A DNA stretch of 58,057 bases from a virus (Duplodnaviria; Caudoviricetes): positions 1 to 58,057 of the IMG/VR virus record IMGVR_UViG_3300025435_000024, one strand, 5' to 3'. Of this stretch, positions 4,269 to 48,992 are shown piece after piece. The position numbers and the translations under genes are program-made. The notes beneath the pieces were generated by a model. That model did no database searches. It was not told where the DNA came from and saw only the letters and a list, made by a program, of their open reading frames with translations. How positions within the stretch are numbered: the stretch's first letter is position 1; every line of letters begins with the position of its first letter.

Positions 4269-4606
4269 TATTGACCAACTCCATATGTAATATTAAGCGT
4301 GGCATTGCCACCAGTCGTGATAGCAGAGAAATATCCACCATACACATCATTGACTAAAAGATATGCTCCAGGAGCTAATTCAATACCGCCATTAACAGTA
4401 TTAGTAGGTACAGCAGCAACTACAGAACTATCTCCAAAAGCAATAAAGATAGGATAAGTATTAGTAGTAGGACTAAATAACAGTAGTGATTCAATATTTA
4501 CTGGAGAATAAGAAGGATAAGCTGTAGCACTAAGTGCGCTAGTTGTAATTGTATACTTACGAGTACTATTAGCAGCACATGGTGAGAAGTTAGCAATAGT
4601 AGCCAT
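4268..4606 (-). CDS. putative virion structural protein
   Basis: 112 aa, beta-rich; translationally coupled. Confidence 0.55.
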   Translation of the reverse strand: MATIANFSPCAANSTRKYTITTSALSATAYPSYSPVNIESLLLFSPTTNTYPIFIAFGDSSVVAAVPTNTVNGGIELAPGAYLLVNDVYGGYFSAITTGGNATLNITYGVGQ

Positions 4607-4947
4607 TACACTAACACCACATAAGCGCCTGTAGTTGTACCATCAGCACTGGCTACAAAACACCTCACATAAGGAGCAAGGCAATCAAATGCCAAAGCTA
4701 CCTGAGTCGTATTAGGAGATATCGCAGATGTAATTGTAGCAGTCATATCCTGCCATAGCGTACCGTCAGGACTACCTTGCACCTTCACAGTAAATTGCGT
4801 ACCACTTGTCGTCCAAGCCATTAAAGCCCTACGAGTCGTACCAGCAATATTACGTGGATTAGAAATTGTGCTACCAGCACCATTAGCAGCAGTACCGTTT
4901 GTGGAAGGTAAAAGCACTAATGGTTGGACTGCTTCTGATGCAGACAT
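4606..4947 (-). CDS. putative virion structural protein
   Basis: 113 aa with VQGSPDGTxW and APYVR motifs; AGGAG RBS; first gene after the leftward promoter. Confidence 0.6.
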   Translation of the reverse strand: MSASEAVQPLVLLPSTNGTAANGAGSTISNPRNIAGTTRRALMAWTTSGTQFTVKVQGSPDGTLWQDMTATITSAISPNTTQVALAFDCLAPYVRCFVASADGTTTGAYVVLV

Positions 4948-4973
4948 AGTTACTCCTTGTGGGATGAAACAAT

Positions 4974-5002
4974 AGTATATGTGTAAAAAAAGTGTAAGTC
5001 AA
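4974..5002 (-). promoter_or_regulatory. sigma70-like promoter for the tail-fibre operon
   Basis: TTGACT-17 bp-TATACT on the - strand. Confidence 0.75.
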
Positions 5003-5015
5003 GTATTATTTTTGA

Positions 5016-5044
5016 TTGACATTTAAATGATTTTGATATAGTAT
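5016..5044 (+). promoter_or_regulatory. sigma70-like promoter pointing into the structured non-coding region
   Basis: TTGACA-17 bp-TAGTAT; shares TATAGTATATT with the promoter at 49390-49418. Confidence 0.65.
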
Positions 5045-5049
5045 ATTCT

Positions 5050-5505
5050 GGTGATGGAAGTGATGACTCCATCTAGGAACTCTATTGGCTACCTCAGCCC
5101 GCAACAAACGCATATCAGGTTTAAAGACCCATATTGCAGCGTGTTCCGTCCAAAGCCCCACTTTAAGGATTAGGGGGTAAGAGTAGGCTCTGTGACGAAC
5201 CACAACCTACAAGTTCTACACGGTTTCTTAGCAGCTGTGTAGACTGCGTTGTATAGGTGATGAGATACATAGATACTGAACCGGACTTAAGTACCCAAAT
5301 TCTTTAGTTCAGTCTATGTAGCAGGAGACAGCACAACCTCCCTCCATGATGCTACTAGGGCTATATAGACTGGAATGCCCCATCATGTCTCTGCTAAGCT
5401 CTATTCGTGTGGCTCCAGACTTCAAGGGCTATCGGATACATCTAGTCTACTACAGGCTAGGTGTATCCGGTACACCACCTTCAAGCTCCGCAGGAATGGC
5501 TACGC
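5050..5505 (+). ncRNA. candidate large structured ncRNA (A)
   Basis: No credible ORF. Tiled stems include 5183-87/5206-10, 5215-24/5234-43, 5266-81/5307-20, 5345-51/5381-87 and 5431-48/5454-71 (18 bp, 3 G.U). Wobbles are valid only on the + strand. Confidence 0.55.
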
Positions 5506-5520
5506 AAATAGATATATAAT

Positions 5521-5540
5521 ATATTAATATATATTAATAT
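5521..5540. repeat. perfect 20-bp AT-only palindrome
   Basis: ATATTAATATATATTAATAT. Confidence 0.9.
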
Positions 5541-6119
5541 GGGTAGCGAATCTTTAAAAAACTAATAAAAACAATAACTTAATAAAACTATATTTGTAGC
5601 TACAAACAACATGATACCAGAATATTTATTGTTACAGGTCTAAATTGTATAAAAATTATAATAGCTTAGCATGTTTTTGCTAGGCTATTTTTTTATGTTT
5701 GTTTGATACTGTTGTAAATGATAAGCTATATTGTGGTACTTTATAAGTGATATACTACATGAAGTATGTGTATGTATGTTATTGTTACTGTTGTGTTTTT
5801 GGTAATTTATAGCAGTGACATATATACATATATATCAACGCTCAGTCCCCAGCCTACCCCCCTCTACAGCTATACAGCTAACCATACATACATATAACTG
5901 TATATACAGCGATACAAACAGAGAACAAATATTGAATGATATTCGTTTCATTCATTCTGCATTGTTTAATGATTAATGATTTGTCATTACCATTTCATTG
6001 CTGTGTCAGTATGTCGCATAGGGCTATAAAGCCATTTAAAAGGCCGTACAGGGCTATTTGACAGATTATGGCACTACGCCCTATAAATCTGTCCACATAA
6101 GTCAACCAATGAAATCAAT

Positions 6120-6169
6120 ATGTTAGCCCTTAACTGGCTACAAAATGTTAGCCCTTAACTGGCTACAAA
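6120..6169. repeat. exact 25-bp tandem duplication
   Basis: ATGTTAGCCCTTAACTGGCTACAAA twice, with no spacer. Confidence 0.95.
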
Positions 6170-6457
6170 GTGGACATTTTGTCTACAAATAACATATCAA
6201 ATCCTGGCATAAATCATGCATAACCAAATAAAGGTTAATAATACCCGGACAATATTCATGCAGCATATACCAGTCATATCTAGGTGATATGTAGCACATA
6301 TGGCACAATTCTTACTCATACGCAGACACGCGCTTATCCACTATTCGCGGGTATAGGGAATTAGAATAACTCTAAACTAGACGGCCTGATAGAAACTGTG
6401 GCAAATATAACACAAGTGCGACGGACTGCCGCACCCTCACATTTTTCAAAAATATCG

Positions 6458-6486
6458 CTAGACATTCCAAAATCATGGGCCTATAC
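6458..6486 (+). promoter_or_regulatory. probable early promoter (alphaproteobacterial RpoD-like)
   Basis: CTAGAC-17 bp-CTATAC resembles CTTGAC-N17-CTATAT; the first hairpin starts at about the predicted +1 (6494). Confidence 0.5.
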
Positions 6487-6493
6487 CTTGTCC

Positions 6494-6967
6494 ATCGAAG
6501 GCGAACACAACGGCTTGGGGGCCTATCCCACCCTCCCTTCGATTAGATGATCCTCGTCTAGCTAGTGCAAAATAACGCACAATAACATGGCTAGGGCAGG
6601 CACTCTCTAGCGGTCACGGTGAAGGTATGCGAAGGCATACAGGCACTAAGCAAGCCGCCCCTCTCCACAAGTGAGAGTGTAAACAACCAGAAACCGGCGA
6701 AATATGGCACGGTTCAATCTGGTTGGTCCTAGTATAACTCCCTATGATTGGATATGCACACGCACCTCTTAGCTTAGCCATACCGACTCGGTGAAGGATA
6801 AGTGTTCTCCTGCCCCTATCTTCTAATTTGGAGCCAAGCTAGAGACAAAACATTAAACCGATTAGGCTGGCCTGACACTCTGGCCTAATCAATCAATCAA
6901 TACTTACTAAGCACTAGTCACTGTGACAATTAAATCACAGATTGGCTAGTGCTTCCTTGTGTTGATT
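6494..6967 (+). ncRNA. candidate large structured RNA / early leader (B)
   Basis: Stems 6494-6501/6536-43, 6601-07/6673-79, GTATGC-GAAG-GCATAC at 6625-40, 6684-91/6718-25, 6860-70/6880-90 and 6909-20/6943-54; G.U pairs favour the + strand. Confidence 0.55.
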
Positions 6968-6998
6968 ACGTCTTAACCTTAACTCTTGGAGAATTGCT

Positions 6999-7226
6999 AT
7001 GAGCGCACAACAATTGACTGAAAAGAAAACGTATCTGGTTCGTTACTTGTCAAAAGCGGGTAAAGGTGGCGATGCTACCACATTCCGCTACACTGAAATT
7101 CAAGCCAAGAATATTGAGCAGGCTAAACTTAAGGCTGAAATGCTTATGGATGATAAGGATTGCTTCACCTATGATGTGATTGATCCTATCGTATTGCATA
7201 GCGTAACAGCGGGAGTAAAAGCATAA
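6999..7226 (+). CDS. early hypothetical protein
   Basis: 75 aa, GGAG RBS, first + strand gene. Confidence 0.7.
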   Translation: MSAQQLTEKKTYLVRYLSKAGKGGDATTFRYTEIQAKNIEQAKLKAEMLMDDKDCFTYDVIDPIVLHSVTAGVKA

Positions 7227-7301
7227 CTAATAGTTACTCTTTCAAAGCCTAGTAAATGCCATGCTAGGCTTATATGGACTAACTAAACCAGGACTATTGC
7301 T

Positions 7302-7508
7302 ATGTCTTACACCACAACTAACTTTAAAACCAAGAAAGCAATCAAGGAGGCCATTGTTTCTGGTAAACGTATCACTTGCTTTAATCCGGGCATGGGTACT
7401 TGTCCTGATAATGGTACAATATACCTTGAAGGACCGCATTATCCTGAACCGCATAAATGGTACGCTCAAGGTGTAATGAAAGACGGATTGCTTGTATCAA
7501 TCAAATGA
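7302..7508 (+). CDS. early hypothetical protein
   Basis: 68 aa, NFKTKK...EGPHYPEPHKWYA; AGGA RBS. Confidence 0.7.
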   Translation: MSYTTTNFKTKKAIKEAIVSGKRITCFNPGMGTCPDNGTIYLEGPHYPEPHKWYAQGVMKDGLLVSIK

Positions 7509-10653: not shown

Positions 10654-10898
10654 AAATTCCTGAGTATTGCCCGGTGTTAGGTATAAAATTACACAAGGCA
10701 GTAGGTGTGTTTGCACACCACTCTCCGTCATTGGATAGAGTTGTACCTAATTTAGGATATGTAAAAGGAAATGTACACGTCATATCTTGGAGAGCTAACA
10801 GTCTCAAAAAGAATGCTACGATTGAAGAACTTGAAAAAATCATACAGTATATGAAGGAACATATTAATGATACTAGCAGGAGCGAACAGACAGATTGA
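10599..10898 (+). pseudogene. C-terminal fragment of an HNH-like homing endonuclease
   Basis: Open frame from 10599: KRAARAGLPCDITAEDIKIPEYCPVLG...SPSLDRVVPNLGYVKGNVHVISWRANSLK. Paralog of 14635-15186 lacking the N-terminus. Confidence 0.75.
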
Positions 10899-12855
10899 AC
10901 GTAGCGATGCGTTTGTATCTAACACATTCAACATTAGTGCTGGAGCGAAAGCATTCGAGGTGCTTAGCTCTGGTATCTATTCTAACAAACCCGCAGCAGT
11001 AGTCCGTGAGACACTGTGTAATGCTGTTGATAGCCATAAGGAACAAGGTAATGCTAGCACTCCAATACTTCTGCATTGTCCTAATCGCCTTGAACCTTGG
11101 TTCTCTGTACGTGATTATGGTACAGGGATGTCACACGAAAAGGTTACTAACTTATACTCTACCTATTTTGGTTCAGATAAGTCAAATAGTAATCTGGGCA
11201 TTGGTGGCTTTGGTCTAGGTTCTAAAGCACCACTATCATATGTAGATAGCTTCACTGTTACTGTATGGCATGGCAACAAGAAGCGTGTGTATAATGTATT
11301 TAAGAATGAGGATGCTATTCCTGAGATTGCTTTATTACATGAACAAGATAGCATTGAGCCTGTAGGTGTAGAGGTTAAAGTACCTGTAAAGACACAAGAT
11401 ATTGATGACTTTATTCGTCAGATCACTATATATACCAGGTATGCTACTATACCTGTTGAGTGTGTTGGTGCTAAGATTACGCATAATAAGCGTAACTATA
11501 TCTATGAAGGTTCAATTTGTAAGGTGCATGATGAAGGTCATTGGAATGATCATACCATTACGTTTGTAGTTGGTGGTGTACCTTACGAGCATTCGCATTC
11601 AGAAATTATTAATCTAAGTATCACATTACCTGAATGCAGTCTAGAAATGCACCTACCTATTGGTAGTGTAGAAATTGCTGCCAGCCGTGAGAAGATTAGT
11701 GCTAAGCCAACTACCATTAAGTACATTCAATCTGTTATTGATGCTGAACGTGCTACTGCTAGTAAAGCTATCAACAATCAAGTATTGAATGCAGATACAT
11801 ACAAAGATGCTTTGAATATTATTGTAGACAAAAGCACTAAGTGGATTAAGTTTGATTGTAAATGGTTAGATAAGAATACTGGCATTACTCATAATCTTGA
11901 AAGAGATAAGGTATACCAGAGTGATGGATTCCATGTACACTACATGGAAGACAATCTAAACCTTATATCAGAGCGCTATAGTAAGAATCGAATACGTTTA
12001 AACTTTACTGAATCGCCTGTAGTTATTCTTGTAGATGTTAGTACGAACTGGAGAGCTAAGGTTCGTCAGTATGGTAAACCTTGTTGGGTTGTGAATAAGG
12101 TTATTGCTTATTGGCAGGATGCTGTTTGGGATAAGGTTGTATCCGATAATACACATCGTGTTACATTTCTTAAGATTTCTGAGTTACCTTACATTAAGAC
12201 TGATATTACTAAGAACTCAGCTAGGGCTAATACAATTACTGTATGGGACCATAGTAAGAAAGATGTTAATTTAACAGAAATTACTGATCCTTTGCATGTA
12301 TTTGTAGGTACAGTCAAAGACCTTAAGTATACCTACATTAATTATAAAGAAGTGTTTGGCGTTAGAGCTGGTATCATTACATATGTTCAATATCGTAAAG
12401 CGTTGAACATTAACCCTGATATGATTATCAATGCTATAGATAATCTTGAAGAGTTCTGTAAAGATACTGAGGATAACAAAGATTTTATTAATTGGCTTTC
12501 AACAGTGAAAGGAGAAACACCTTATATTGCATATGGAGTTAGAAGGGGTATAGACAAACTAAATAAGACATACAAGTGCAAATGGACTGATGAATTATAT
12601 ATGTTTGCTAATGACCATGAGTCAGCAGATTATATGTTTGCAAAGGATTGTATATATAGGTACAATGTTGCCTGTGATTTATTGAGTCGTGAAAAGCAGT
12701 CAAATATTAAATTGTCATCGGCCAAAAGTTGGCCTAGTAAGTACGAGTGGATACCTGAATCGGTATTGAAAATGCTTGGTGACTCATACGACATTCATGA
12801 AACAAAGAAGTTAGTTGAATTATTAAACAGCGGTGCAAAGGAGCACGGACTATGA
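10867..12855 (+). CDS. rIIA: rIIA-like protein (GHKL/Hsp90-type ATPase N-domain)
   Basis: IYSNK..AVVRETLCNAVDS, RDYGTGMS, GGFGLGSK, GVEVKVPV; ATGA-coupled to rIIB. Confidence 0.8.
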   Translation: MILAGANRQIERSDAFVSNTFNISAGAKAFEVLSSGIYSNKPAAVVRETLCNAVDSHKEQGNASTPILLHCPNRLEPWFSVRDYGTGMSHEKVTNLYSTYFGSDKSNSNLGIGGFGLGSKAPLSYVDSFTVTVWHGNKKRVYNVFKNEDAIPEIALLHEQDSIEPVGVEVKVPVKTQDIDDFIRQITIYTRYATIPVECVGAKITHNKRNYIYEGSICKVHDEGHWNDHTITFVVGGVPYEHSHSEIINLSITLPECSLEMHLPIGSVEIAASREKISAKPTTIKYIQSVIDAERATASKAINNQVLNADTYKDALNIIVDKSTKWIKFDCKWLDKNTGITHNLERDKVYQSDGFHVHYMEDNLNLISERYSKNRIRLNFTESPVVILVDVSTNWRAKVRQYGKPCWVVNKVIAYWQDAVWDKVVSDNTHRVTFLKISELPYIKTDITKNSARANTITVWDHSKKDVNLTEITDPLHVFVGTVKDLKYTYINYKEVFGVRAGIITYVQYRKALNINPDMIINAIDNLEEFCKDTEDNKDFINWLSTVKGETPYIAYGVRRGIDKLNKTYKCKWTDELYMFANDHESADYMFAKDCIYRYNVACDLLSREKQSNIKLSSAKSWPSKYEWIPESVLKMLGDSYDIHETKKLVELLNSGAKEHGL

Positions 12856-13688
12856 CAATGTTATCTTTTATTAAAACTGGTGAATCAGTTACAGTGTACC
12901 TGGATGGTGAAGCTACTACAGTTGATAGCAGCCATCCTAACTATTTAAAATTGCTTGATGCTTTGCGTTCCAAAGACATTGCAGACATTAAGGCTAATAT
13001 GGATATTGGTTCAGCAGTCAAGGCTTATGTTGGCACTGGTCGTGCCTATCTTATGAATGGTGTTGTGTACTATGACGATGCACCTGTTCAAGGTGTTATC
13101 GTTGATCGTATCATGACCATGATGACTGAAGGCTTTGATGTTCAACCTATGTTGAATTTCTTGGCTAAGGTATATGATAATCCTTCTAACTCTGCCATTG
13201 AAGAAACATATCTGTTCATGGAACATAATGATCTTACGTTGCATGAAGATGGTGATCTGATTGCATATAAAGGTGTCACAGAAGATTACAAGGATTGTCA
13301 TACCAAGAAAATTGACAATCGAGTTGGCTGTGAAGTCTCTATGGATCGTCGTAAGGTAGATGATCGGCGTCATGTTACTTGTTCACATGGTCTACACGTT
13401 GCCAGCCTTGAGTATGCTCTAGGGTTTGGTAGCAAGACTGTTGTGGTCAAGGTTAATCCTCGTGACATCGTTTCTATTCCAAACGACTATCATAACCAGA
13501 AGGCCAGGGTATGTCGTTATGTCGTGGTGGACGAGCTTAAGTCTAACCAACGCTATTCAGATAAGTCTGTAGTGTCTGATGATGAATTGGGTCGGGAATC
13601 AAATGATGATGGTGATGAATATGAAGTTGAAGAAGTTACTGTTAAGTATCACAACAAGCGTGATGCTTTAGGTCGTTTCACTAACTAG
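12852..13688 (+). CDS. rIIB: rIIB-like protein
   Basis: NPS...LF...DG.LIAYKGV, VSMDRRKVDD...TCSHGLHV, KVNPRDIVSIPNDY..QKARVCRY. Confidence 0.85.
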   Translation: MTMLSFIKTGESVTVYLDGEATTVDSSHPNYLKLLDALRSKDIADIKANMDIGSAVKAYVGTGRAYLMNGVVYYDDAPVQGVIVDRIMTMMTEGFDVQPMLNFLAKVYDNPSNSAIEETYLFMEHNDLTLHEDGDLIAYKGVTEDYKDCHTKKIDNRVGCEVSMDRRKVDDRRHVTCSHGLHVASLEYALGFGSKTVVVKVNPRDIVSIPNDYHNQKARVCRYVVVDELKSNQRYSDKSVVSDDELGRESNDDGDEYEVEEVTVKYHNKRDALGRFTN

Positions 13689-19962: not shown

Positions 19963-20036
19963 GCTCAGTTCGTATAATGGCATTACGTCAGTTTTGTAAT
20001 CTGATCATGGGGGTTCGATTCCTCCACTGAGCACCA
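19963..20036 (+). tRNA. tRNA-Thr(TGT)
   Basis: GCTCAGT/ACTGAGC acceptor, anticodon loop TTTGTAA, GGTTCGATTCC T-arm, encoded CCA. Confidence 0.9.
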
Positions 20037-47153: not shown

Positions 47154-48357
47154 TTAACCGCGCTGCCAATAGACACGGGCCAAAGCTTCTGGACGGAGAG
47201 CCTTACGACCATACAGATGCAGACCACGAACCACGTCAGCAAAGCTGTCTGGATCACGATATGTTTCTGTCTTGGCAATCTGACTAACTGTAGCGACCGC
47301 AGACATATGACCAGCTAAAATGGTACCATAGTTGCCTGTACCAGTTGCATCCGAACCCGAACCACCTGTAACCAATGAGTTTGACAAGTAGCAATCAAAG
47401 CCGCGAATCTTACCTTCGATAACGCGACCATTCCACATGCCGGGACGCATTGGCGAAGTTGAGTCACCAGTTTGATTGACTTGCATCAAACGGCTTTCTT
47501 CAGCTTGCATTTGTTCCCAAAAGAACGGTTCAGCAACAACCCAGCGACCATCCGTAGGCACGTTAGCTTCGTCAAACTTACGGTTCAAACGAGCCAAAAT
47601 GTTCAGAGGAGAGAAGCCACCTGCTGGCGGATTGACACGCACAACAGAAGGAGTTGAAGAAGAGCCAATTGTGATGTTGGTATTAGAAGCAATGTAAGAC
47701 AACACTTCAGCGTCAAAGGCATCTTTCAACTTAAACGCAGCGCGTTCAGTTGCCAAAGATTCCCAGTTGACGTGAGATTGTTTAGCTTCAATGTCGTCAA
47801 CCTTAAATGCAAACTTGTTCGCATGGTCAACAACCAACGTAATATCCGTATCAATCAAATCAGTCGGAGTGATCGACTGTCCACGAACGTACGGAGATAC
47901 GATAATATCCGGTTCCAGAATGATGTGGACGCTATCGCCGTAGTTAGCGATTTCACCAGAATAATCAGTATTCGTAATAGCTTCCACGACGGAAACACGA
48001 CGAAACTTCTTCAGAACTTTCTGAGAGTAGATGGTAGGGCTGAATGCTCCGTTCCTAAGTCATTGATTTCTCAATGTGTCCAGGCTCTTTATCCTGGCTC
48101 CACTATATTTCTATAGTGAGTAGACTATATCATCATTCCGTAGAATGTTGGGCGCTCGTGTCAGGATTATTCTTTCGTCACCTGTTAGTCGTTGAACCTT
48201 CTAAATCCCTGGGGATAAATCCTTACGTATTTAGCTTGGCTGCTGATTGACTTCACCTTTACGTGGTCAGCTTTTCCAGCAATTCACCCAATTTTACCGT
48301 CCCCTAACGATTTTGAGAAGGGAGGTTTCCATAGCCCGCGCTAGTGGAAAATGCCAA
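47154..48357 (-). CDS. major capsid protein (312 aa): exon 1 48319-48357, exon 2 47154-48053
   Basis: AGGAG RBS and TTG start. Splicing gives MAFSTSAGYGNLP/NGAFSPTIYSQKVLKKFR, then TNTDYSGEIANYGDSV, FKVDDIE, RDPDSFADVVRGLHLYGRK. Confidence 0.9.
48054..48318 (-). ncRNA. group I self-splicing intron (IA-type, ORF-less, 265 nt) in the capsid gene
   Basis: Exon ends in U, intron ends in G. IGS CGTT-a-GGGGA pairs with UCCCU (P1, U.G) and AACG (P10). P GAATTGCTGGAAA, Q AATCAGCAG, R GTTCAACGACTA, S GATATAGTC; P3 TTGGGTG/CGCCCAA. Confidence 0.93.
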
Positions 48358-48452
48358 TTTAGTAACTCCTATGTTATAAGTTTTTTAAGTTTATAGTCTA
48401 GGGCTGTTACAAGAGGGGTACTTTTCAGGGCCATCTATCACAGGTTATCTAA

Positions 48453-48992
48453 CTACTTATTATTTTTGTACCTGACGAGTAGTTCTGCCCATCGCAGAAG
48501 ATCGTCCTCAATTAGGTTTTGTTTAATTTTGTTTACATACCAGCAAACAAATTAAACATTCCCTTCACAGTATCCAACGCTTGAATCAATTCTATCTAAT
48601 GACATTAGTTCTTGCGAGGATTTTAAAAAGTTCATGGTTACACCCGTAAGTGCACATTTACCTTTTTGTCTATTGTATAAATCTTCTAAATAACTAAAAG
48701 TTAAATTAAAATTAGATTTATTTCTTTTATTGGCAGAATCTAAACAATATTTAAGTCTACCAATTAATGTACTATTTCTAGTTCTTTGCTGTTCACGATA
48801 AACAGGTAAACGATTTTTTCTATAATTTAAACGTCTATCTTTTTCTTTTTGATAACGTCTACGATTATTTTCCTGCTCACATGCTTTACACCATGGACGA
48901 ATTCTATTACGTTTATTATTTCCTGTTACAGGATCATATTCATTGCGCGATTTAAGAACATTACAAATTTTACATGTTTTATGTGTTAGCAT
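48453..48992 (-). pseudogene. free-standing HNH-like homing endonuclease with an in-frame TAA at 48552-48554
   Basis: CKIC...CKAC, CALTG, SLDRIDS..GY..GNV*FVCWYVNKIK; frame stays open to TAG at 48453. Confidence 0.8.

Follow-up and report, generated by a model that had tools for sequence, protein, structure and literature searches.

A probable structured RNA gene in a freshwater podophage, with relatives in mobile islands of SAR116-order bacteria

The window analysed here, a stretch of 58,057 bases that makes up an entire IMG/VR virus record (completeness rating 100%), is from a freshwater podophage of the HMO-2011 type, with a lytic-type genome. Its leftward genes (- strand) begin at 4947 and its rightward genes (+ strand) at 6999. 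The junction between them (4948-6998, ~2 kb) is poor in open reading frames (ORFs), with a single one of at least 60 aa (65 aa), and within it the + strand at 5016-5697 very probably carries a genuine gene for a structured non-coding RNA, belonging to a superfamily of pseudoknotted RNAs associated with mobile elements. The evidence comes from a second phage contig (L165, 2,751 bases), from SAR116-order genomes in which copies are found by a covariance model (R1) that was built from three bacterial sequences and no phage sequence, and from a comparison with the Rfam family RF01712.

Positions 5016-5697 would form an independent transcription unit consisting of a host-type promoter, a folded RNA of ~455 nt, an AT-rich spacer and an intrinsic terminator, with transcription probably starting near 5051. 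Its features, together with the promoter of the opposite operon, are the following.

4974-5002, - strand: sigma-70-like promoter of the operon that runs leftward from the 113-aa gene 4947-4606; TTGACT, 17-nt spacer, TATACT
5016-5044, + strand: sigma-70-like promoter of the RNA gene; TTGACA, 17-nt spacer, TAGTAT, agreeing with the consensus at 10 of 12 positions
5051-5505, + strand: structured RNA core of ~455 nt, candidate mature RNA, based on the fold z-score, the helices in L165 and the R1 match
5053-5073, + strand: 5' terminal hairpin of 6 bp, with the conserved word CUAGG after it; in L165 the same CUAGG comes after a 4-bp hairpin that differs from this one
5155-5178, + strand: hairpin Pa, 5 bp with a closing G.U pair, loop with UUUAAGG, then an AAGA linker
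5183-5210, + strand: hairpin Pb, 5 + 4 bp; no other element of the family is as conserved, and L165 and genome G001 have the same stems
5215-5243, + strand: hairpin Pc, 9 bp including one G.U pair; loop 5227-5234 provides the 5' strand of the pseudoknot
5267-5319, + strand: window-specific hairpin (the 14-15 bp stem of the sequence-only reading) inside the helix 5244-5247 / 5321-5324
5324-5345, + strand: module M4, a loop with GAGAC...ACC closed by a short helix; counterparts in L165 and in R1-type and RF01712-type members
5345-5387, + strand: hairpin M5, whose 7-bp stem bears an enlarged loop; shorter hairpins at this place in L165 and bacteria
5391-5398, + strand: 3' strand of the pseudoknot, 8 of 8 pairs with 5227-5234
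5409-5416, + strand: conserved word GUGGCUCC opening the 3' domain
5420-5426, + strand: first copy of a word that occurs twice (twin word, CUUCAAG)
5433-5469, + strand: long hairpin (the 18-bp stem of the sequence-only reading), whose tip is the family-wide hairpin ending in GGCUAGGU
5472-5485, + strand: conserved CACCA word, then the second copy of the twin word (5479-5485)
5506-5659, + strand: AT-rich spacer opening with an AT-only palindrome; the L165 spacer is alike in length and unlike in sequence
5660-5697, + strand: intrinsic terminator, a 12-bp stem with one G.U pair and then a T run

Both of the back-to-back promoters that a previous reading of this DNA, made from the sequence alone, had placed at 4974-5002 (-) and 5016-5044 (+) are present, and both are kept in L165, in register with the window and with TTGACA, a 17-nt spacer and TATACT each. 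Within 4500-7500 three promoter-like sites were found against 9.6 expected from shuffles, i.e. there is no enrichment, so that the promoter scan alone proves nothing and the conservation in L165 carries the weight. In agreement with that reading, by which the rightward promoter has no protein gene to drive, 5051-5505 contains no long ORF (the longest ones overlapping it have 65 aa, at 5006-5203 on the - strand, and 57 aa, at 5346-5519 on the + strand). The terminator had been overlooked. In L165 it keeps its stem and T run with the two innermost pairs swapped (C-G, A-U to A-U, C-G), an exchange that was read by eye in a place left unaligned by MAFFT.

L165 was reached through the 113-aa protein encoded beside the RNA, which has one relative, 55% identical, in 5.8 billion proteins. 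Identity between the window and L165 is 78% in the core (5140-5265), 68% in the 3' domain, 63.6% in the neighbouring protein gene and 53.9% in the spacer (5542-5655). The compensatory changes by which the stems were to be judged are seen between these two phages: RNAalifold gives four pairs changed on both sides, all in Pc and its outer extension, and two more in the long hairpin, in addition to G-C/G.U exchanges. The 5' terminal hairpin at 5053-5073 is not called by this program.

The stems described in the window are real, with the correction that the long hairpin, previously credited with 18 bp and three G.U pairs, has 15 listed pairs, two of them G.U (the minimum free energy fold lengthens the stem to 19). 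At least eight helices were found besides this one and the hairpin at 5267-5319, which is absent from L165 and from all bacterial members and is therefore a lineage-specific expansion outside the conserved fold. G.U pairs are located in Pa, Pc, the long hairpin and the terminator, and they would be mismatches on the other strand, in agreement with the claim that the wobbles favour the + strand. The fold z-score of 5050-5510, also proposed as a check, is not near zero on the + strand (-2.70, with none of 100 shuffles as good) and is lower there than on the - strand (-1.90, 4 of 100). The RNA stretch is GC-richer than its flanks, as described (0.40-0.46 inside vs 0.26-0.31 just downstream), and terminates in an AT-only, partly self-complementary run. 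Judged by this one sequence alone, 5051-5505 is a moderate candidate. None of the covariance models of Rfam 15, among them HEARO, GOLLD, ROOL and pRNA, matched the RNA stretch at gathering scores or at E<=10, and ARAGORN found neither a tRNA nor a tmRNA in it, in line with the earlier impression that it carries no tRNA, tmRNA, RNase P or intron signature. Identities as tmRNA, RNase P, intron, riboswitch or pRNA were rejected on the lack of a model match in this stretch. Of the relatives that were scanned, none matched an Rfam 15 family other than RF01712 either.

Relatives were found in bacteria. A 23-base pattern taken from the most conserved hairpin, scanned against one genome per species for 185,579 species, matched a single contig from a SAR116 single-cell genome. 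With three mismatches allowed it was found in 5 of 192 genomes of the SAR116 order, four of which have the outer U-A pair of Pb changed to C-G on both sides. The model R1 (151 positions) covers hairpin Pb, the pseudoknot helix, in which the long-range pairing was written as nested, and the three helices enclosed by it. It matches L165 over its full length (positions 1-151; 51.8 bits, E 5.3e-12) and the window at 5179-5247 (33.9 bits, E 2.9e-7). Among 151 genomes of the SAR116 order 9 are matched, two of them twice, and a class-wide sample of 150 genomes beyond the order gave one weak match (E 0.005). In the R1 alignment of ten sequences, L165 and nine bacterial ones, 90.9% of the cells pair, compared with 32-50% for slid partners, two-sided changes are seen in 26 of 35 pairs, and none of 500 shuffles reaches any of the measures. 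Both sub-helices of Pb covary in this alignment, M4 corresponds to its helices 5 and 6, and in M5 (helix 7) all four pairs change on both sides. The bacterial homologues have no ORF common to them. Two of the R1-type copies are partial: in L200 (G123:C24), partial or decayed, the likeness ends past the GAGAC module, and in L203 (G178:C170) the contig end cuts through the copy.

A curated family close to these RNAs is RF01712, a motif of 103 nt with a gathering score of 40 bits. The only description found of this Methylobacterium-1 motif is a table row of a 2010 survey, which classes it as an RNA without cis-regulatory function and records it for marine samples and Methylobacterium and not for phages; the supplement of the survey may hold more on its context (Weinberg et al. 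2010, PMC2864571). In our searches RF01712 exceeded its cut-off in 28 of 151 SAR116-order genomes, which except for G084 differ from those matched by R1, and in none of 151 genomes of the class sample outside the order. The RF01712 loci in the order extend in 3' direction into modules of the R1 type and of the phages: in order, a strand complementary to the loop of hairpin 3, a helix closing GAGAY...ACC, a further hairpin, a hairpin ending G(C/U)UARGUGUGUCC and a CACC word, after which conservation stops. RF01712 is thus the 5' end of an RNA of ~330 nt in SAR116-order genomes, which has the pseudoknot, the GAGAY...ACC module, the 3' hairpin and the CACC word in common with the window RNA. The two types meet in G084:C1 (~200700-200872), which is recognised by RF01712 with 101.4 bits and by R1 with 33.6 bits (E 5.7e-6 per genome). 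The RF01712 model matches neither the other R1-type bacterial copies nor, at E<=1, L165 and loci L187-L190.

The pseudoknot was also tested without an alignment. At least 8 contiguous pairs can form in 31 of 34 members, with ~15 different sequences, and a loop forms a mean of 9.3 contiguous pairs with its own strand against 6.4 with foreign ones (standard deviation 1.4, n 890). The exceptions are L165 (6 contiguous pairs), L205 (7) and L233 (6). L233 (G072:C26), of the RF01712 type, has the loop of one subtype and the strand of another, with the pseudoknot broken, and looks like a recombinant (a chimera of two subtypes) or a decaying copy. On the 5' side the likeness between RF01712 and the window was read by eye and is unscored: the order of hairpin 1, linker, hairpin 2, hairpin 3 and YGNRGUU corresponds to Pa, Pb, Pc and then CUGCGUU in the window. 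Read in this way, both would have a UUUAAAG-type hairpin, a purine linker ending in GA, a GC-rich hairpin and a longer hairpin in this order, and at the level of reading hairpin 1 of RF01712 (loop UUUAAAG) and its ACGA linker resemble Pa and the AAGA linker. Hairpin 2 of RF01712, in contrast, is half as long as its counterpart in the window, and the 103-nt motif stands against an RNA of ~455 nt with two private expansions. As RF01712 does not match the window, we regard the latter as a distant variant of its kind and not as a member of the family. The proposal of an undescribed large phage RNA stands as to a promoter-driven, large, structured, non-coding + strand RNA that falls in no curated family, while bacterial relatives of it do exist. 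No paper on the larger RNA or on a phage copy was found in the literature.

The 3' domain connects the phage and bacterial RNAs through words. In the window these are, in order, UGGCUCC, the hairpin ending in GGCUAGGU, CACCA and the doubled word; the combination TGGCTCC-N20-50-GGCTAGGT is confined to the window, L165 and R1-type loci (12 of 244 loci, 6 distinct places). The phage domain has a much longer hairpin and is without ~45 nt that in bacteria separate the hairpin from CACCA. In the tip of the hairpin one bacterial member changes A-U to G-C. A covariance model of this domain (R2), made from seven bacterial R1-type copies, matches RF01712-type copies weakly (E 5e-4 to 0.09). The twin word, 6-10 nt long in the phages and R1-type copies, stands in direct orientation after GGCUCC and again after CACCA. 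Seven lineage versions of it were found, the two copies being alike within each. In bacteria copy 1 pairs with an upstream strand that changes along with it, and copy 2 could for this reason compete for the same strand. The word is not enriched in the phage genome (8 occurrences vs 4.2 expected, two of the 8 being the RNA itself) and is unrelated to tRNA or attachment-site repeats. Its use as a simple guide for an integrase found no support, and the phage has no integrase.

Several results weigh against this reading of the RNA as a member of a structured superfamily. The single-sequence z-score is modest and largely the doing of one hairpin, as most of the fold signal in 150-nt windows comes from 5350-5549, i.e. 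from the long hairpin. Covariation at the phage level rests on two sequences because L165 is the sole phage relative found. Insertions in the window make its R1 alignment local and mis-modelled, and the ten-sequence alignment was fitted to the structure of the model, which favours pairing (the slid controls are less biased). With default filters R2 finds no match to the 3' domain of the window, L165 or locus L186, and with the filters off it gives 8.8 bits (E 8.7) at 5439-5462 of the window and 11.8 bits (E 1.7) in L186; the homology of the phage 3' domain rests accordingly on the shared words and their order. RF01712 does not match 4900-7100 of the window even at E<=10, the pseudoknot of L165 reaches only 6 pairs, and that of L233 is broken. 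Finally, the RNA is absent from the other HMO-2011-type phages examined: 160 partial loci fetched by a 223-aa protein and the terminase contained no homologue by blastn/nhmmer or R1, and among five whole HMO-2011-type records R1 and RF01712 matched none (0/5 each, HMO-2011 itself included for RF01712).

Other searches for phage copies gave the same picture. Neither 4950-7000 of the window against 50,697 phage records nor two bacterial RNAs against phage records produced a blastn match, and no relatives came up in IMG/VR for the 113-aa neighbour or for RIIA, each searched as a single protein. In IMG/VR there was also no match to alignment A1 and none to a DNA pattern of the core; a gapped pattern of the 3' domain gave 19 matches, all rejected as unrelated by eye and by nhmmer.

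The genomic setting of the bacterial copies ties them to mobile DNA. In all four RF01712-type loci that were widened the order is tRNA-Arg, integrase and RNA, and an integrase of one family lies 440-890 nt upstream, on the strand of the RNA, at 11 of 30 loci, while one locus has an apparent serine recombinase, named by eye. Repeats of the 3' end of the tRNA bound islands of ~5 kb in two genomes. The R1-type copies are located directly past tRNA genes, and two of them are divergent from a DUF5681-type gene. The genes downstream of the bacterial RNAs are mutually unrelated, on the same strand at some loci and convergent at others. The island RNAs are in this way tRNA-integrated and often near an integrase, unlike the window copy, whose phage genome contains no PF00589 integrase. 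A DUF5681 gene was not matched in it either, in a search whose own control was also unmatched. The island integrase was rejected as a link to HMO-2011, being of a generic phage type that is 33-35% identical to integrases of Ralstonia and Pseudomonas phages. Taken as a whole, the finding suggests that an RNA gene has been exchanged between phages and islands of SAR116-like hosts.

Two islands deserve a separate description. In L209 (G006:C22, 5973-11813) a tRNA-Ser gene is followed by an R1-type RNA and by BrxA, BrxB and BrxC, the RNA being placed at the tRNA-proximal edge of a defence island of the bacteriophage exclusion (BREX) type. In L207 (G188:C4) two inverted units of ~950 bp, each with a DUF5681-like remnant and an RNA (~6040-6990 and 9900-8960), flank a 2-kb stretch that is AT-rich and ORF-poor, in an island that lies between tRNA-Leu and a 17-nt repeat of the 3' end of this tRNA.

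The fold shared by these RNAs starts with a hairpin whose loop is of the UUUAARG type, followed by a purine linker and the hairpins Pb and Pc. The Pc loop pairs with a strand ~160 nt downstream, enclosing three smaller helices, and the 3' domain consists of GGCUCC, the conserved hairpin ending in GGCUAGGU, CACCA and a doubled, lineage-specific word of 6-10 nt. The RNA is presumably transcribed and active as a free RNA, and would work in trans, as a module travelling with mobile elements. As to how, our preferred mechanism is a guess of low probability: the pseudoknotted core could be a scaffold that keeps both copies of the word single-stranded or in exchange, so that the RNA might toggle between two states, or might offer a programmable word to a nucleic acid that is its partner in the element or the host. 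Against such a mechanism, no complement of the twin word was found within 1-2 kb. A bolder version of the same idea, distinctly doubtful, would make the RNA the working core of a new kind of mobile-element module, a programmable RNA common to tRNA-integrating islands and lytic phages, whose twin word specifies a nucleic-acid partner, like guide or bridge RNAs do, and which for example directs or blocks recombination, packaging or replication of a competitor in the conflict between phages and islands.

Other explanations accommodate part of these data. A cis-acting leader that gates the downstream genes, either riboswitch-like or a processive-antitermination element in the manner of the HK022 put RNA, is unlikely. 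The copies of the word would here be alternative partners of one upstream strand, which is the logic of attenuators, and copy 1 does pair with that strand, where copy 2 could replace it. Furthermore, in several islands an ORF with a ribosome-binding site follows on the same strand 40-70 nt past the RNA (a small ORF family at 5 loci and a 121-aa family at 3), a lipoprotein gene is directly downstream in G113 and BrxA-C in G006, and in the phage same-strand early genes come after the terminator. At other places, however, the next gene is convergent (DsrE-like at 3 loci, an epimerase in G083, a GDSL lipase in G006:C4), the downstream genes have no relationship to each other, and in the window the terminator and the first ORF (6999) are 1.3 kb apart, with a second promoter-like site (5703-5732) between them. 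The motif is also listed as not cis-regulatory in the table of the 2010 survey (PMC2864571).

We consider it unlikely that the RNA is the transcript of an origin, priming or activating replication, with the AT-rich stretch as the unwinding element, for which ColE1 RNA II and the promoter-plus-AT-rich origins of T7 and T4 are parallels. The succession of promoter, structured RNA, AT-only palindrome, 150-nt AT-rich spacer and terminator would suit this function, as would the position in a 2-kb junction between divergent gene blocks, and the ORFs scanned in the ~5-kb islands show no replication gene. The minimum of the cumulative GC skew, at 6985, is uninformative on an origin because it coincides with the switch of the coding strand, 1.5 kb from the RNA. 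In bacteria conservation ends after the second word, without a conserved AT-rich element, the RNA is found also beside a BREX island and ordinary chromosomal genes, and a pseudoknotted, deeply conserved tertiary fold would seem to exceed the needs of a primer. A signal at the DNA level, i.e. a packaging site, an attachment site or an array of protein-binding sites in double-stranded DNA, is highly improbable. The stretch does stand at the head of an operon that contains the terminase further along, two bacterial copies adjoin the DUF5681-type gene, which we take to resemble small terminases, and there are direct and inverted repeats in the rest of the junction. Double-stranded DNA, however, would not account for helices that survive two-sided changes and contain G.U pairs mismatched on the other strand, for a long-range pseudoknot covarying through ~15 sequence versions, or for a promoter and a terminator around the element in both phages. 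Scarcely credible is a small protein gene, or the remnant of a decayed one, with incidental stems. ORFs of 40-65 aa can be drawn (5051-5173 and 5346-5519 on the + strand, 5006-5203 on the - strand), but the 57-aa one begins in a segment absent from L165, the substitutions between the window and L165 fall in paired positions and not at every third base, and the absence of an ORF common to the bacterial homologues speaks in the same direction.

Among known systems, GOLLD and ROOL are large RNAs (hundreds of nt), intricately folded and of unknown function, found in prophages and phages and often beside tRNA genes. The RNA of the window resembles them in size class, intricate fold and a phage or tRNA-side setting, and differs in that it is smaller, occurs in other host groups and has no sequence or model match to them even though both are in Rfam. 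The pRNA of phi29-type phages, ~120-170 nt, is encoded at the edge of the genome map and transcribed from an early promoter of host type, and its molecules rely on loops complementary to each other. It is likewise phage-encoded and structured, with a host-type promoter adjoining the start of a gene block; the repeated word of the window is, in contrast, direct and not complementary, homologues occur on islands without capsid genes and there is no Rfam match. The immunity RNAs of P4 (CI) and of P1 and P7 (C4), ~70 nt, come with short direct repeats that co-vary between heteroimmune relatives and to which a complementary loop of the small RNA is directed. Here too a mobile-element RNA has words repeated directly, with the difference that no complement is present within 1-2 kb.

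To our knowledge large, intricately folded RNAs of unknown function are rare in bacteria and phages, and GOLLD, ROOL, OLE and raiA have each raised new questions. The present comparison reveals the orphan motif RF01712 as the 5' end of a pseudoknotted RNA of 330-455 nt, and to a family known only as that 103-nt motif it adds a phage member that has a promoter and a terminator of its own. It also ties the family to mobile DNA, in the form of tRNA-integrated islands, often by an integrase and once by BREX, and of a lytic-type podophage. A motif that had been without a hypothesis since 2010 is now open to concrete experiments.

Regarding the phage itself, its terminase is 60% identical to those of Puniceispirillum phage HMO-2011 and the Roseobacter CRP phages, and among IMG/VR terminases the nearest reach 50-54% identity only. 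No end repeats were found in the 58,057-base record. The stretch is present in freshwater metagenome runs; the RNA runs X23 and X24 contain 5-6% of the sampled words, which counts for nothing on expression. At the equivalent place HMO-2011 has a junction of ~0.5-1 kb. The sole tRNA of the phage genome, tRNA-Thr(UGU) at 19963-20036, is 14 kb from the RNA gene. An RIIA-like gene and then a 278-aa ORF occupy 10867-13688 of this HMO-2011-type genome, and the term rIIA is absent from the main text of the survey paper on HMO-2011-type phages. A group I intron (RF00028, 86.9 bits) was recognised at 48101-48388 on the - strand, between the same-strand ORFs 47154-47987 and 48552-48992, and a late gene is probably split by it.

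The rest of the junction (5700-6998) shows patchy conservation with L165. It contains the second promoter-like site (5703-5732), directly past the terminator, a C-rich block at 5845-5862 common to the window and L165 and a tandem direct repeat of 25 bp at 6120-6169. The windows 6600-6749 and 6850-6999 fold strongly on the + strand, and it is possible that 5700-6998 holds more RNAs, or one long early leader.

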